In this document: one piece after another, positions 2,982 through 52,851 of the stretch | How the letters are laid out: the number at the start of each line of letters is the position of its first letter | Position numbering within the stretch: the first letter of the stretch is position 1 | Source of the DNA: an uncultured virus (IMG/VR IMGVR_UViG_3300035506_000159) | Lineage: Duplodnaviria; Heunggongvirae; Uroviricota; Caudoviricetes | DNA: 64,000 bases | Virus record (IMG/VR): IMGVR_UViG_3300035506_000159 | Reading direction: 5' to 3' (one strand) | Notes under the pieces: model-generated | The model's input: the letters and a program-made list of their open reading frames with translations, nothing else | Told to the model about the DNA's origin: nothing | Database searches by the model: none | Position numbers and translations under genes: made by a program

Positions 2982-3674
2982 TTATTCCATTTCAGATATA
3001 TAAATGCCAACCGCATTTTCGGTATTGACAACTTTATCTTGTAGTTCTAAAACTTTTTCATAAGCAAAATTAGCTTTTTCATTTGCTTCTTCTGTTTTAT
3101 CATATAAATCATTAATATTATCTAATTTTTCTAATTTATCTGCGACATCTACAAGTTTTTCTTGAATTTCTGCAAAAGAAACTTGCATTTGTTCAAATTC
3201 TTCTTTTTGTGCGGCAATCTGGTCACGTGCTTCTTTGGCTGCACTAGATAAATCAATAATTGCATTTTGAAAAACAGTATAATCATCACTTACTACAAAG
3301 TTTGAACCATCATCAGGGTCTTTAATAACATGAATTAAAAAGTCTACACTTTGAACGATGCTGATAGAATCTACTAGTTTTATACAAGCTAGAACATTCC
3401 CTTCCCACAGCATACTTTGTGGATAACTAATTTGCCAAACTGGAGGTGTATCTGAAATTTGTTGAAATATATTTAATCCACTAATATCTTTTTCTTCGTG
3501 ATGCCAACTAAGATATACCTTTGTTTCTGGAGTGAATTGAGCAGCAGCTTCTTGAGAAAATATAATTCTTAAAGTGCGGCCATTGGCATCTCCCGCGCCT
3601 GCTGTAATAGGGTCAGGAATATTTTGGTCCATTGACTTCATATTAATAGTTAATGCCCTTAATTCTTGTGCCAT
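2982..3674 (-). CDS. BppU-like upper baseplate domain protein with coiled coil
   Basis: 230 aa; N-terminal GDANGRTLRI motif typical of BppU_N-like domains; heptad C-terminus; TAATG coupling to upstream gene. Confidence 0.5.
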   Translation of the reverse strand: MAQELRALTINMKSMDQNIPDPITAGAGDANGRTLRIIFSQEAAAQFTPETKVYLSWHHEEKDISGLNIFQQISDTPPVWQISYPQSMLWEGNVLACIKLVDSISIVQSVDFLIHVIKDPDDGSNFVVSDDYTVFQNAIIDLSSAAKEARDQIAAQKEEFEQMQVSFAEIQEKLVDVADKLEKLDNINDLYDKTEEANEKANFAYEKVLELQDKVVNTENAVGIYISEME

Positions 3675-4243
3675 TATTGTTCACCCCAATCCTCTTCTTT
3701 GCGTTTTTTAGTTTGGAAATCAAATCCGCTTATTGTTTTAAATTTTTCCAATCCTTGCGTAGTATTTAATGAAAGCTTTGGCAATTCACGAATTTCCGCA
3801 ACTAGATTGTCAATATACGTATCTCCTCCAGCATTTTTATAGTACAAAAATTGTCTTTCAATACTTTGAAGGTTAATGTCATCAATTGCACCAATTTCAT
3901 AACAAAAGTGATGGTGTTTATCAATAATATAAGACCTTGCTTGCTCTTGGAGCCTTTCGGTAGTGAGGGCAGATTCTTTTTCAAGCTTACGAACAACTTC
4001 GTTTAAATTATCTAACTTGGCATCGATAGACTTAATATTTTCACCAACAGTCTCTAAAGTATCGATTAACTCCACGTTTTTGTCCTTTTGTGCTTGCTGT
4101 CCATTAAAGTAATTTTGGAGCTTGGCGTAAAACCAACCCAGAAGCTCCGCAATATATTTTATCGCAACTCCTATCATTATAATGAAAATTATAATGGTTT
4201 CAACGGAGTATTGCGATAGTAAATTTTCTAGAGTACTCAACAA
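3674..4243 (-). CDS. Putative holin-like membrane protein
   Basis: TTG start with AAGGAG; N-terminal hydrophobic helix (IIIFIIMIGVAI), coiled coil, C-terminal Y..AGGD.YI motif; directly downstream of endolysin. Confidence 0.6.
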   Translation of the reverse strand: MLSTLENLLSQYSVETIIIFIIMIGVAIKYIAELLGWFYAKLQNYFNGQQAQKDKNVELIDTLETVGENIKSIDAKLDNLNEVVRKLEKESALTTERLQEQARSYIIDKHHHFCYEIGAIDDINLQSIERQFLYYKNAGGDTYIDNLVAEIRELPKLSLNTTQGLEKFKTISGFDFQTKKRKEEDWGEQ

Positions 4244-37482: not shown

Positions 37483-37665
37483 CTACTCATCATCAGAAGT
37501 AGAATCAGAATCATCTGATTCAGTATCTTCTTCTGTCTTTTCAACAGGTTCAGTTACTTCTTCTTGTTTATCAGATTCTTCTTCTTTCTTATCACTATCG
37601 TCTACTACTGGTTCAGTAGTATCTTCTTGTGATGGTTCTTCAGTAGAATTATCTACTGGTTCACT
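37483..37665 (-). CDS. In-frame acidic C-terminal extension of major tail protein (putative UGA readthrough)
   Basis: 60 open codons directly after TGA 37668-37666 in the same frame, ending TAG; no in-frame ATG/GTG/TTG; lies before the terminator. Confidence 0.6.
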   Translation of the reverse strand, partial: SEPVDNSTEEPSQEDTTEPVVDDSDKKEEESDKQEEVTEPVEKTEEDTESDDSDSTSDDE

Positions 37666-38424
37666 TCAGTCAGTCTCCTCAACTTCGCCATCTGCTGCAA
37701 TAACGGTAGGAGCGATGTTCTCCTCACCGATGATTTGGATTGCGGCAAAGACCTTGTGGGTCTTGTCAAAGTTGGTATAGTCAGGGAAGGCATCCATAGT
37801 GAAAGTGAAAGTACTGGGGTCGCCAGTGTTAGCCATGCTGAAGGTAAAGTTAGATTGAATCTTAACGTTAGGAAGAACAATCTCAGCAGGCATATCCTGA
37901 GCGGTATACTGGTCACGGAAGAGGGTAGAAGCCTCAACGTAGTAGTTACCAGCAAAGTTCTCGGCATCGATGGTCATCTCGGTTGCGCCACCAGTGTGCT
38001 GAGCATAACAATCAAGACGGACAGTCTTGCCGACATATTCAGCAAGAGTATCATTCTGAATAATTAGATCGTCATTCTCAGTAATAGTATAAACACCATC
38101 AACTGGGTTAGGACCAGAAGCAGAGGTAATTGGACCAACTGGAACAACACCCGCACCAGTATTGTCTAGAACAAAGCCATACATAGGTACGTCTTCACTA
38201 ATAACAATATTGAAGCGGTCGTCAGCGGTACTAATACCACCTTGGGCGGTTGAATGATCAATATGAACTTCGCCACCAGCAAGAATAGGTAGGTCAAAAG
38301 TGGTGTGAATATTAATCTTGTTTTGCTTGTCAGCATCGGTGAAGTTGGCAAGGCCAGCACCAGTAAGCATAGCAAAGCTGATTGGTGAAATTAGGGCATC
38401 TTCGACTGTGAAAGTGACGGTACG
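37666..38424 (-). CDS. Major tail protein, exon 3
   Basis: RTVTFTVEDALISP...KIQSNFTFSMANTGDPSTFTFTMDAFP; GC-richer high-expression codons. Confidence 0.85.
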   Translation of the reverse strand, partial: RTVTFTVEDALISPISFAMLTGAGLANFTDADKQNKINIHTTFDLPILAGGEVHIDHSTAQGGISTADDRFNIVISEDVPMYGFVLDNTGAGVVPVGPITSASGPNPVDGVYTITENDDLIIQNDTLAEYVGKTVRLDCYAQHTGGATEMTIDAENFAGNYYVEASTLFRDQYTAQDMPAEIVLPNVKIQSNFTFSMANTGDPSTFTFTMDAFPDYTNFDKTHKVFAAIQIIGEENIAPTVIAADGEVEETD

Positions 38425-39661
38425 CATAATTTTTTGTTAGGTGCCCTAAAAATTTGTTAGGTTTTCACAATATCTCTATTGTGATTAGACTATATCTTCG
38501 CCGTTATGCTATCGGCGTTCCTCACTGTCCTTATAAAAAGGCACTTAGTCGTTGAAGTTTTTGGTTACAATTTGCCAGAAATCAGAAGTAACTAAAAATT
38601 TTTCTAGTTCATTAAAAAATTGATATGGAATAACTAAAAATGGAATTCTGTTATCCTCACAAAACTTTCTTTTAATATAGTCATGCTTTTGTTGGTAAAC
38701 TAATCTATCTGGAGTATCCCAACTAGTTCCAGTAGTAGAATAATGTAAGGAACCATTCAATTCTATCAATCCAATTAGTTCATCTTCATTATTAAAAAGA
38801 GCAAAGTCAAATGGTAATGGTCTTTTATCTAAACAGCTTTCAAATCTATATTCTCTTTTAAATGGGATGTTTAATCTGGTAAGAACTTTATCCATTTCAG
38901 CATTTGCTTTAGAATCAATGCAACCGCAAGACGCTGTTGTTCCTGAAAAAATTCTCTTACCTAAGACATCAACTTCATTGCCGCAATCGCACATGCAATG
39001 ATACCAATATGCATCATTTTTTGCATAACAAGACAATAAAGTTAGTTTTCCATGCTTTTCACCAATGTGGCTCTCTGCATTTTCAGCATGTCTTTTCTTA
39101 GTGTCTATAGATTTCTTGCATCCACAACTCTTTGATGTTCCTTGCTTTAGACTTCCATCAAAAACACTTTTTATAGTTCCGCAAGAACACTTACAAATCC
39201 AATATCTTGGTCTGCTTTTATCTTGCGCGATAACTGTCCATTCTCCAAAAGTTTGTCCAATTAAACTATTTTGACAAGCTCGACTACATGCGGTAGAGAT
39301 ACCTTGAATTAGGGCAGTTCCCCTAACAGCTCTAATAGTGCCACAGACAAGACACTTGCATGTAAAATATTTGATTCGATGTTTATTAACATGACTAAAT
39401 TCTATTACTTCCCAATTTCCAAATCTCATTCCTGGCTTAATCTCACTTGGAGTCATATTTAAGTCTCCTTTTTCTAGTGCCAAGTAACCAACTTACCTGC
39501 GGATTGTCTAATACTTGACGATTTTACTATACTGAAGTAATTAACTTCACCACTAATTATATCACTATATTAGCTTAGTTGTCAAGTCTCTAAAGAGTTT
39601 CCCGCAATTCAAGGAATTTTTTTAGAAGGCAAGAGTACCAGTGTCACTTTGAGTAAATTCT
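38425..39661 (-). mobile_element. Group I intron 2 of major tail gene, endonuclease-encoding (5' boundary inferred)
   Basis: P element AATTGCGGGAAA, Q AATCCGCAG, R TTCAACGACTAA, S AAGATATAGTCT; P3 TTCCT/AGGAA; ends AUG before CGT. Confidence 0.85.
38545..39456 (-). CDS. Intron-encoded homing endonuclease (three Cys-rich repeats plus Vsr/DUF559-like nuclease domain)
   Basis: ATG 39456 with AAAGGAG, 303 aa; repeats G..FG.W.V...C.C.CG...SCGC; C-terminal LPFDF..IELNG.LHY..IPFLVIPY; stop lies in the P7 strand. Confidence 0.8.
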   Translation of the reverse strand: MTPSEIKPGMRFGNWEVIEFSHVNKHRIKYFTCKCLVCGTIRAVRGTALIQGISTACSRACQNSLIGQTFGEWTVIAQDKSRPRYWICKCSCGTIKSVFDGSLKQGTSKSCGCKKSIDTKKRHAENAESHIGEKHGKLTLLSCYAKNDAYWYHCMCDCGNEVDVLGKRIFSGTTASCGCIDSKANAEMDKVLTRLNIPFKREYRFESCLDKRPLPFDFALFNNEDELIGLIELNGSLHYSTTGTSWDTPDRLVYQQKHDYIKRKFCEDNRIPFLVIPYQFFNELEKFLVTSDFWQIVTKNFND

Positions 39662-39848
39662 TTCGCCTTCCCACGCGACAAGACGGGGGTTGCCCTTACC
39701 GCCTTGAGCATAAACAGTATTTGCAGCACCCTCAAGTGTGGAGGTCTTAGCTGTATCAATGTAAAGAACAGGCTGACCCTTCTTGAAGGTCTTGTTACCA
39801 ATTTGCATGTCTGTACGTGCCTTAAAGACAACATCACAAATTTCTCTT
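39662..39848 (-). CDS. Major tail protein, exon 2
   Basis: Correct frame not in ORF track: REICDVVFKARTDMQIGNKTFKKGQPVLYIDTAKTSTLEGAANTVYAQGGKGNPRLVAWEGE. Confidence 0.85.
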
Positions 39849-40075
39849 CATTTTATTACAAAATGGACTATCTCTTAGTATTACTCTTGGTAATACTATA
39901 CCTTTTTCGCATTACGTGCCAATAGTAATCCTACTTTATCTATTAAGATTATATAGTCTCTACATCGCTCCTATTGGAATGACACGGGATTTCCATTATA
40001 GATTCCCCGTTAGCCTATATATTATAATATAGACCCCCGCGGCAACAGGATAAGGTATATTGGCGCAAGAAGCTC
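39849..40075 (-). ncRNA. Group I intron 1 of major tail gene, ORF-less, 227 nt
   Basis: P1 UUGGCGU/GCGCCAA with U.G; P3 ATACCTT/AAGGTAT; R GTAGAGACTAT, S AAGAGATAGTCC; terminal G; splicing restores MRFGV-REIC. Confidence 0.9.
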
Positions 40076-40089
40076 ACGCCAAAACGCAT
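40076..40089 (-). CDS. Major tail protein, exon 1 (14 nt)
   Basis: TAAGGAGG RBS then ATG CGT TTT GGC GT. Confidence 0.85.
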
Positions 40090-40100
40090 ATTTTTCCTCC

Positions 40101-40745
40101 TTAGAAAAATTTCGCTTTTTTACGAACCAAATATAACTTGGGATTATCTTTATAAAGATATTCTCCTAGCTTTAATGAATCTTTCTTTCCAAATTTGAGT
40201 AGATTATTATCAAGGTCATAACTTCCACCCACAATATTAGCACTTTGCTCTAATTTTGCTTTCAAGGATTTAGCAAAATTTTCTCCGCAAATAAAAGAAG
40301 TATTAATTCTATTTCCTTTAATCTTTGCTATATTGCCTTTTCCATCAAAATATCCTCTAATAAAATCATTAAGATATTCATCTGGAATATTTGGAAAATT
40401 TGAAGATAGTGATTTTGTTTCAGAACCACCCAAAGTAATAATATCATTATACAATTCAGAACAACAAAAGTTAATACGTGCAACTTGTTTGTCTACTAAA
40501 TCATATAAAATACCATTATAATTTAATTGTCTAGCAATTTGCTTAATGATGTATTTATCTTTTTTAGATACTGTAATATCAAAAATTTTACCGCTGTAGA
40601 TACAGCCATCGGCCCACCAAAAACCAAATATATAAGCCATATTACTAGACCAGACTTTGAAAAAGTCCTTTTTAAATTCTTCAGGCGAAGTCTTATCATT
40701 GTTCTGGGACAATAAAAGTCCTTCATGTTCTTTCAACATTGTCAT
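40101..40745 (-). CDS. Free-standing two-motif LAGLIDADG-family protein
   Basis: Motifs AYIFGFWWADG and DFIRGYFDGKG; likely start ATG 40745 (214 aa). Confidence 0.8.
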   Translation of the reverse strand: MTMLKEHEGLLLSQNNDKTSPEEFKKDFFKVWSSNMAYIFGFWWADGCIYSGKIFDITVSKKDKYIIKQIARQLNYNGILYDLVDKQVARINFCCSELYNDIITLGGSETKSLSSNFPNIPDEYLNDFIRGYFDGKGNIAKIKGNRINTSFICGENFAKSLKAKLEQSANIVGGSYDLDNNLLKFGKKDSLKLGEYLYKDNPKLYLVRKKAKFF

Positions 40746-50562: not shown

Positions 50563-51369
<807 letters not shown>

Positions 51370-51888: not shown

Positions 51889-52148
51889 CATTTGTATTCT
51901 ACGAGATTCGCTGATTCTCGCACGTTCTCTAATGAACTGCTGCATGTCACCATGCAGATTAGACCATATCTTTATGCGTTTTACGCATATTCTCCGTTTC
52001 CACCATCAATAGCTTATGATGTACGTGCTATGCACTGGTCGTTGAACGTTCTATTATAAAATAATAGCTTCGCTGCTGATTGTCTTTTTATCTAATAAAT
52101 AAAAGATGTCCCAGCAATTAGAAGAATTTTAGCAGAGCCTAAATATTA
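51889..52148 (-). ncRNA. Group I intron 1 of terL, ORF-less, 260 nt
   Basis: P1 GCAGGGU/GCUCUGC with U.G; P AATTGCTGGGA, Q AATCAGCAG, P7 GACCA/TGGTC; terminal G; splicing gives TSAG-FKNTF. Confidence 0.92.
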
Positions 52149-52851
52149 ACCCTGCAGATGTGACAAAGATAGCAGATTGATTTAATACTTCATTTGGGTC
52201 TGAATGACCATTAATTTGTCTACTAACTACCAATGTTGGCATAATAATTTGGTTGAATCCTTCTTGGTCAACCTTTGCAACCTCTTCCGCAAGTAGAGAT
52301 TGAAAACGCGCACCACGAGTATGTTCACTAATTGCGCAGTTAGACAGTTGACTTCCATTCTTAAAAAGATATGAAACAGTATCTTTTGTTTGAGAAGTTG
52401 TTCCAAGTTTACCTCTTGTATCCCATTCAATTTCTTGTTTTAGCGCAGGAATTAATGTACATAATTCAATTATCTTGCTTCCAAGGATCATCGCTGACTG
52501 CGATTTGCCATCAGCGACAGTGGTTACTTTTGCGCCAGGATACAGAATACATTTAATCATTAGGGCTAGAACAGAAATAAATGATTTAGAGAAACCTCGA
52601 CTAAAGACCGCAAATACTGTCTTATATCTAAGCAAAATCCGCAACAACAATCTTTGAACAAACATTAGTTTAAAAGTATTATTTGGATTTAATGAACATA
52701 GATAATCAATAAATTTATCTGGATATTTTCTCCAATAGTCAATAAGTTTTTGATAGTAAGATAGATTTTCTACAATCTTAATTTTATCAACTTCTACCTT
52801 ACCACCTTTCTTATTGCTATTGGCAGTTTTAAGTAAATTTGATAATGCCAT
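52149..52851 (-). CDS. terL: Terminase large subunit, exon 1 (ATPase)
   Basis: Walker A-like SRGFSKS, RGARF, Walker B-like LLAEE, coupling motif TSA; three exons total 1758 nt = 585 aa. Confidence 0.9.

Follow-up and report, generated by a model that had tools for sequence, protein, structure and literature searches.

According to the accessible text of PMC4227781, the final 4-6 nt of the 5' exon are paired to a guide in group I introns, and the base at position -1 is "virtually always a U (or exceptionally a C)". Can an intron of this kind be removed after an A, and what would then fix its splice site? The question is raised by intron 2 of a predicted tail-tube gene on the minus strand of a 64,000-nt stretch of DNA from an uncultured member of the Caudoviricetes (IMG/VR record IMGVR_UViG_3300035506_000159). 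The whole of this stretch is called here the window; unless stated otherwise, the features described lie on its minus strand. An initial annotation, made from the letters of the window, had described the element as a group I intron lacking a U.G pair at its 5' splice site, but with a 26-nt antisense guide to the ligated exon junction.

The boundaries of intron 2 were first read from the sequence against the homologue MRFGVREICDVVF… and …AWEGERTVTF…, and were then seen in contig joints. Exon 2 (39848-39662; …REICDVVFKARTDMQIGNK…RLVAWEGE) ends in TGG GAA GGC GAA, its terminal base being A 39662. Intron 2 (39661-38425), a group I intron of 1237 nt, opens with AGAAUUUACUC at 39661 (AGAAUU start) and closes in UUAUG, with its omega-G at 38425, and exon 3 (38424-37666; RTVTFTVEDALISP… to the stop codon) begins with CGT ACC GTC ACT TTC. 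The end of exon 2, the terminal G of the intron and the start of exon 3 were all as initially annotated. Across the junction, the predicted ligated product reads …LVAWEGERTVTF….

Contigs (Logan contigs, not reads) of four metatranscriptome runs, X1-X4, were aligned on positions 37500-40300 of the window. A joint of 38424 to 39662 (GAA↓CGU, the arrow marking the splice site here and below) was observed in contigs of two of the four runs, at a depth of 4.5 in X3 and 9.4 in X4, with a shorter side of 30 and 27 nt, respectively, and the last base skipped was G 38425, the omega-G. The joint of intron 1 of the same gene (39848 to 40076) was found in all four runs (depths of 50.3, 30.5, 14.7, and 39.7), exactly as its P1 predicts. 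Both joints were unambiguous ("both" = 0, no intervening letters), and unspliced contigs also spanned both intron-exon borders. By these contigs, intron 2 would be excised exactly between A 39662 and C 38424; the joined form is present in two of the four RNA libraries and may be DNA there. Since the junction in these libraries is GAA↓CGU, the 5' exon ends in A 39662, which faces C 39633 where a U.G pair normally stands. An assembly error at 39660-39666, considered initially, was not borne out, as independent contigs spanning 39544-39848 carried no change there. Along the locus (37966-39259), the exon-3 contig (37966-38401) was 2.6-3.4 times deeper than the contig of the intron open reading frame (ORF) in all four runs, and the last 120 nt of the intron were of intermediate depth.

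The same junction was obtained from the homologous proteins. All 78 intronless homologues (L006-L083) run from W[ED]G[ED][RK] directly into a T/V-x-T-F strand without any indel, and GAA↓CGT is the only junction compatible with every one of them. The register preferred initially, which yields WEGERTVTF, is the one found in the RNA-library contigs of two runs, and the alignment of the intronless proteins supports it alone. A cut after GGC (WEG-RT), initially put forward as an alternative, is contradicted by both the contig joint and the 78 homologues. Of these homologues, 39 have G before the site, 24 have A, 14 have C, and one has T, whereas all 78 have T before the site used by the L089 intron, located downstream and described below.

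The guide (39650-39625, 26 nt) reads AAAGUGAC-ACU-GGUAC-UCUU-GCCUUC and was the best-pairing 34-nt stretch within the whole of intron 2. Its P1 segment (GCCUUC+UU, 39632-39625) forms eight pairs plus a closing G.U with the 5' strand of P1 (39670-39662), which consists of the paired GAAGGCGA and the unpaired splice-site A 39662. At the cut site, C 39633 faces A(-1) and U 39634 faces C(+1). The P10 target is formed by exon 3 bases 38423-38411, which pair with a proximal segment, GGUAC (39639-39635), and, beyond the ACU bulge, with a distal segment, AAAGUGAC (39650-39643), giving 5 + 8 pairs. Over the 23 positions of GAAGGC-GAAC-GUACC-GUCACUUU, this amounts to 20 Watson-Crick pairs, one G.U and two mismatches with a 3-nt bulge, a count that exactly reproduced the initial one. 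The duplex of the guide with the ligated exons had an energy of -30.4 kcal/mol, a value reached by none of 2000 shuffled guides (mean -11.8, standard deviation 2.8).

The P1 hairpin, numbered so that position n is 39671-n, had a minimum-energy fold of -13.6 kcal/mol, in which A(-1) faces C 39633 with A8-U39 below it and A10-U37 and G11-C36 above. In the precursor, the first 11 nt of the intron (39661-39651, AGAAUUUACUC) pair with the same guide bases as an extension of P1. This extension includes two U.G pairs 5-6 nt inside the intron, U 39657.G 39638 (U14.G33) and U 39656.G 39639 (U15.G32), which would be the conventional choice of splice site but are not the one observed. The initial annotation, which saw no U at a usable P1 position, is to be corrected by these two pairs.

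A sister phage, L005 (80-94% nucleotide identity), carries the intron at the same site, with a very different 5' end. Its guide, AAGGUAAC-A-UGUAU-UG-UCACCUUC, has the architecture found in the window, namely 8 pairs followed by two mismatches, another 5 pairs, a bulge of 1 nt (3 nt in the window), and a further 8 pairs, and the guide pairs at 21 of the 23 positions in both phages. The L005 duplex had an energy of -29.5 kcal/mol, which none of 2000 shuffles reached. Four differences between the two phages in the exons under the guide, all of them synonymous, are each matched by a change in the guide (C:G>U:A, C:G>A:U, C:G>U:A, and U:A>C:G), and two further one-sided changes preserve the pairing (G.U>G-C and G-C>G.U); one double and one single change fall in P1, and three double and one single in P10. 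Since every exon difference under the guide is matched in this way, the comparison of the two sequences argues that the guide is under selection. The only positions unpaired in both phages are -1 (A:C in the window, A:G in L005) and +1 (C:U), which points to the cut-site mismatch being a conserved feature and not a recent accident.

A search with the intron endonuclease found a further relative, L089 (63% identity), and a metagenome scan added L100 and L104. In these three, the same gene holds a homologous intron at a site 14 nt further downstream, at …GAA AAA ACU CUG ACC CU↓UAAUUAAC…G↓C ACA CUU…, and the L089-type intron is fully canonical, with a P1 (UGACCCU/GGGGUCA) ending in U.G, an adjacent P10 (CACA/UGUG), and a P2 hairpin. 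The guide of L089 binds the same exon bases (+7/+8 to +14 from the window junction) as the distal guide of the window and L005; moreover, the L089 guide and the L005 distal guide both lie 3-4 nt after a common AUUAACAA.

The following history is proposed for this locus. The original home of the intron family would be the downstream site, after ...ACUUU, with a normal U.G as in L089, and in the lineage of the window the intron would have ended up 14 nt upstream. Its former guide, now AAAGUGAC, would have been kept as the distal P10, where its end, a U-A instead of a U.G, should prevent cutting, and P2 would have given way to another guide, directed at the new 5' exon. In this view, the distal half of the present guide is probably a retained ancestral guide used as an extended P10. 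Perhaps the intron first entered the new site in an Asp (GAU) allele, whose U would pair as U.G with a G still present in L005; a T at -1 is found in one of the 78 homologues. The idea that the start of the intron is a decayed copy of the old exon (AGAAUUUACUCA resembles alleles AGAACUGUUACUUUCA) was dropped, because pairing to the same guide explains the likeness equally, and the sequences of the window and of L005 themselves match at chance level, as judged by eye.

The distribution of the family was analyzed with motif searches. An exact 20-mer of the core found only the twin of the window and L005 in IMG/VR, with no further example of the A-type. A degenerate core pattern returned three loci in IMG/VR and seven metagenome loci, all the new ones being canonical, with L100 and L104 using the downstream site and five lying in other genes (P1 GGU↓C…GGCC). 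Only the generic P3-P5 core (9-10% of the query) was matched by blastn against isolate phages. Intron 1, both terminase introns, and the third L005 intron, which are the other introns in these phages, are canonical too, and the odd splice site is therefore specific to this locus.

The ribozyme core of intron 2 was first assessed with Rfam RF00028, which scored only 35.9 bits (E 8.8e-07) over 38466-38626, the 3' half, below the gathering score of 50; this weak score arises because the ORF splits the model. The core is nevertheless complete when written by hand, P3, P4, P5/P5a, P7, P8, and P9 being present; the initial annotation had described an intact P3-P7 core. The 5' half (39624-39457) comprises J1/3 UAAAAAAA, P3 (UUCCUU/GAGGAA), P4 (GCGGG/CCGC), J4/5 (AAA), P5 (UCU/AGA) and P5a (ACUUGAC/GUCAAGU), P4', the 5' strand of P6, and the ribosome-binding site of the ORF. 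The 3' half (38560-38425) comprises P7 (GACUA/UAGUC), a P7.1-like hairpin, P3', P8 (CGCCG…CGGCG), P9 (CACAAU…AUUGUG), the tail, and the omega-G. Several of these helices (P5, P5a, P3, and P9) co-vary in L089, L099, and L005, as illustrated by P5 UCC/GGA and P5a ACUUAAC/GUUAAGU in L089 and by compensating P9 changes in L005.

The intron ORF (39456-38545, 303 aa) lies in the P6 loop, has its stop codon within P7, and is homing-endonuclease-like: it matches PHROG 374/559/9084 "HNH / homing endonuclease" (E 1.1e-33), with no match in Pfam or among PDB sequences. Between the window and L005, the core differs at one of 168 bases in the 5' half and at none of the first 63 bases after the ORF (230 of 231 identical), and the ORF differs at 53 of 912 bases, with 43 synonymous vs. 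7 non-synonymous codons. Because the core is near-identical and the ORF differences are mostly synonymous, the alignment argues that ribozyme and endonuclease are both under purifying selection. Taken as a whole, intron 2 is quite likely a functional and mobile group I intron of the phage IA type, with an endonuclease in its P6 loop, residing in the tail-tube gene of a gut phage.

Intron 2 is a real group I intron, and its sequence suggests the following chemistry. P1 would arise from pairing of the guide (39650-39625) with the final 8-9 bases of exon 2, leaving A(-1) as a single mismatch that faces C 39633 and has pairs on either side, and free guanosine would attack after A 39662. Exon 3 would displace the first bases of the intron, which in the minimum-energy fold pair with 39639-39634 and part of the distal guide, and would form a two-part P10 of 5 + 8 perfect pairs. 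A cut at the omega-G 38425 would then allow GAA to be joined to CGU. The long guide probably supplies the binding or docking and the register that are otherwise given by the wobble pair. The complete proposal, in which a ribozyme devoid of the U.G wobble cuts after a mismatched purine and has its register fixed by a 21-bp two-part guide, born of a 14-nt move and a recycled old guide, stands in our judgement evenly balanced between right and wrong.

Several points weigh against this account of intron 2. In model introns deprived of the U.G pair, the first step is strongly impaired, the Rfam score of intron 2 is under the gathering threshold, and the 14-nt relocation is read from three lineages and one common 8-mer. 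For X1 and X2, in which the share of the stretch was highest, no joint of intron 2 was reported, although their exon-3 contig reaches three times the depth of the intron-ORF contig (56.5 vs. 16.7 and 42.9 vs. 14.1). Additionally, the evidence for the joint consists of contigs at low depth, with one side under 30 nt in X4, from RNA libraries, which can hold DNA.

The same observations (contigs only, libraries that can hold DNA, a joint absent from two of the four runs) would also be explained if the joined form were DNA of an intronless allele in the sampled communities and the intron copy spliced poorly, elsewhere, or not at all. Several strains were indeed present, to judge from L005-like loose ends at 39629 and 39669 in X1, X2, and X4. 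However, no near-identical intronless allele was found among 177 IMG/VR relatives, in which the identical L004 and the intron-bearing L005 are followed by a sequence of 57% identity; the 78 intronless homologues likewise include none near-identical to the gene of the window. Furthermore, the compensatory changes of the guide and the conserved core matter only if the RNA is processed, and a tail-tube gene cannot be dispensable. We regard this explanation as rather improbable, and an intronless allele would in any case fix the same boundaries, so that the A at -1 stands. Also unlikely, though less so, is that splicing at the A is real and depends on a protein, with the intron endonuclease acting as a maturase, or with the neighboring LAGLIDADG protein or a host factor docking P1. 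The intron ORF is intact and evolves under purifying selection (43:7 synonymous to non-synonymous), and a free-standing LAGLIDADG gene (40769-40101; Pfam LAGLIDADG_3, E 4.9e-07; PHROG 4645), encoding an endonuclease different from that of intron 2, stops 12 nt before the start codon of the tube gene. Some LAGLIDADG proteins of organelle introns are established maturases, but we know of no maturase of a phage group I intron. Besides, the LAGLIDADG gene lies outside intron 2, upstream of exon 1, and an endonuclease of this family is also carried by the canonical L089, so that such an ORF is not peculiar to the A-type site.

The remaining explanations dispense with a cut after the A. The ribozyme could use a conventional U.G pair at U 39657.G 39638 or U 39656.G 39639, at the cost of one or two additional residues in the protein; the window and L005 both have a U.G at hairpin position 14/33, and U.G is the rule in almost all known introns according to the accessible text of PMC4227781. 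Against this, the joint in the RNA libraries lies at 39662 and not at 39657 or 39656, and a 5' splice after U 39657 needs a 3' splice site after 38423 to keep the frame. The inserted residues (e.g., WEGERI(R)TVTF) occur in none of the 78 homologues and would differ between the two phages, RI in the window and NF in L005, despite exon 2 proteins that are 98% identical. The initial alternative of a downstream U (after AGAAU or AUU) with a conventional U.G is contradicted by this contig joint and by the homologues, and we consider such a cut very improbable. There might, finally, be no splicing at all but two polypeptides, exons 1-2 ending in ...ERIYSK and exon 3 starting from the ATG at 38427. 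The signals noted initially in support of a split protein do exist: an in-frame TGA in the guide, 18 nt into the intron, which ends the ORF 39644-39808 after ...ERIYSK, and an in-frame ATG at the intron end. No Shine-Dalgarno or other ribosome-binding site precedes this ATG, however, AUG is a common intron 3' end in these phages (intron 1, terminase intron B, and L005 intron 2a), and the break would fall at the invariant W-E-G motif. Contradicted by the joint in the RNA libraries as well, a split protein is scarcely credible.

Compared with the phage IA-type introns, such as those of T4 td and the SPO1/Twort type, intron 2 shares the P3-P9 core, the omega-G, a P1 formed by a guide, a P10, an ORF in a peripheral loop, and a position in conserved codons of an essential gene. 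It differs in that its 5' exon ends in an A facing C, instead of a U facing G, and in that P2 is missing; its guide also covers 23 bases of the junction (a P1 of 8-9 bp and a P10 of 5+8 bp), as against the 4-6 nt given in the accessible text cited at the outset. The introns of L089, L100, and L104 have a homologous ribozyme, a 63% identical endonuclease, the same host gene, and the same guide-bound exon bases, but in them these bases are the 5' exon, with U.G at the cut, a 4-bp P10, and a P2 hairpin.

Two group I introns with C.G at the splice site were reportedly the subject of work by Hur & Waring in 1995, judging by its title. A tRNA intron type with C at -1 is described in the accessible part of a preprint (Williams, 2020, bioRxiv 10.1101/2020.01.27.920355). 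As far as that part goes, introns with C at -1 resemble intron 2 as natural departures from the U.G rule, but they keep a pyrimidine there, whereas the window has a purine in no standard pair (A:C; A:G in L005). The group B IStrons (BcISt1 of Bacillus cereus ATCC 10987) splice after G, as determined from element-free sites and by reverse transcription PCR according to the accessible text of the report (Tourasse, Stabell & Kolsto, 2014, PMC4227781). They are likewise natural group I ribozymes with a 5' exon not ending in U. As described in that text, the IStron keeps its U.G, shifted by one base beside an internal loop, whereas the nearest U.G of the window is 5 nt off; intron 2 is also free of an insertion sequence element, and it has a plain mismatch at the splice-site position. 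Engineered trans-splicing group I ribozymes likewise hold their substrate by additional antisense pairing beyond P1 (PMC3895272), but they are designed, act in trans, and still need a U at the splice site. In an intron database of 2025, the U is called "completely conserved", and 16,427 hits were rejected for lacking it (PMC11835236, accessible text).

No report of a natural A at -1 was found in the literature searched, mostly without subscription journals, in which C or G was reported. Judging by the sequences, what appears to be new consists of a mismatched purine at the 5' splice site, a two-part guide of 23 positions that shows compensatory evolution, and a canonical sister intron at a distance of 14 nt. 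If the proposal is true, group I introns can colonise sites without U, and catalogues demanding U at -1, as that of PMC11835236 does in its accessible text, miss a whole class of introns. The rule that "only a U is needed" for ribozyme targeting would be softer than assumed, and the design of trans-splicing ribozymes starts from a target U. The A at -1, the junction in the RNA libraries, the compensatory evolution of the guide, and the canonical sister intron 14 nt away make of the three alleles (U.G, A:G, and A:C), in one ribozyme family with one target, a natural experiment on the contribution of the wobble pair vs. an extended guide. The tube-gene case also shows how introns may shift between neighboring sites in a conserved motif.

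In the window, the tube gene consists of three exons and two introns. Exon 1 (40089-40076, ATG CGT TTT GGC GT) is preceded by AAGGAGG, and its product, MRFGV↓REICDVVF when joined, agrees with the N-termini of the homologues. Intron 1 (40075-39849) is an ORF-less group I intron of 227 nt with a canonical P1 (UUGGCGU/GCGCCAA) that includes a U.G, and its 3' end is AAAAUG. Rfam RF00028 gave no match to intron 1 even at E<=10, though this intron is joined out in all four RNA runs.

The gene pieces match PHROG 2729 "virion structural protein" (exon 3, E 4.6e-32). Each intronless homologue is one ORF, of about 250-460 aa, and such ORFs were found in uncultured phages, in Enterococcus phages of the VRE9/EF1 type, and in Brevibacillus phage Sundance. 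A structural model of one of them, L008 (41-sequence alignment, predicted local distance difference test (pLDDT) of 74.2), matched solved siphophage tail-tube proteins, the top hits being 8ygm_A (E 3e-10; entry title only "SPR") and 8xkn_B (E 2.1e-09), followed by YSD1, Chi, and JBD30. A single-sequence model of L006 was discarded (pLDDT 35.3), and the alignment-based model was used instead. The gene order phrog_31155-6123-4051-2729 is shared with Enterococcus phage VRE9_4, where it lies ahead of the tape-measure gene. On the basis of the tail-tube matches of the model and of this gene order, the interrupted gene is predicted to encode the siphophage major tail (tube) protein, and its initial description as an essential and abundant gene was reasonable for such a product.

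Three distinct intron insertion sites were found within 21 nt of the W-E-G-E-R-T-V-T-F codons (window 38411-39670 and homologues). These codons, which belong to the best-conserved part of the tube protein, are an insertion hot spot.

The tube gene of L005 contains four introns. At L005 1489-1767, an extra group I intron of 272 nt (Rfam 93.8 bits) was located 7 nt upstream of the A-type intron, with the 7-nt exon AGGTGAA between them. To judge from the reading frame and 3'-end homology, this extra intron would also follow an A (CGUGGGA↓, the A facing G of the guide CUCACG), although a junction giving W-D-G-E, where U would stand at -1 but the terminal base would be A, is likewise conceivable. 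Part of the P1 of the L005 A-type intron forms only once the extra intron upstream has been removed. A canonical group I intron absent from the window was also found in exon 3 of L005, at 3622-3952 (Rfam 88.2 bits; CCAAGU↓, guide GCUUGG).

The terminase large-subunit gene of the window (52851-50027, minus strand) is split by two canonical group I introns, with boundaries taken from P1 and the reading frame only. Intron A (about 52148-51889, Rfam 96.7 bits) has the 5' splice site GCAGGGU↓, and a terminase intron, at 51940-52172, was the only one found by Rfam at the gathering threshold. Intron B (about 51369-50563) has the 5' splice site AAUGGGU↓ and carries an HNH ORF (51338-50727). The extra L005 intron (1489-1760) resembles intron B (50563-51369) in patches of 70-100% identity and in a common 3' end, GGAAUAUAAUG, and the insertion sites are alike, AUGGGU↓UAGGUG in terminase intron B and GUGGGA↓AGGUGA in L005. 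This likeness suggests that the extra L005 intron may be an ectopic insertion into a look-alike site, with A in place of U.

Five further loci (L099, L101, L102, L103, and L105) carry the same ribozyme family, with an identical P3-P5 motif, in other genes of other uncultured phages, with P1 GGU↓CAAUUAGGCC and a hairpin P2; the L099 copy lacks an ORF and is about 300 nt long. Beside the terminase gene of the window, a free-standing ORF of 123 aa (49923-49552, minus strand) shares its PHROG matches (559, 9084, and 7140) with the C-terminal half of the intron 2 endonuclease, and by its sequence it looks like a stand-alone copy of the nuclease domain of that enzyme.

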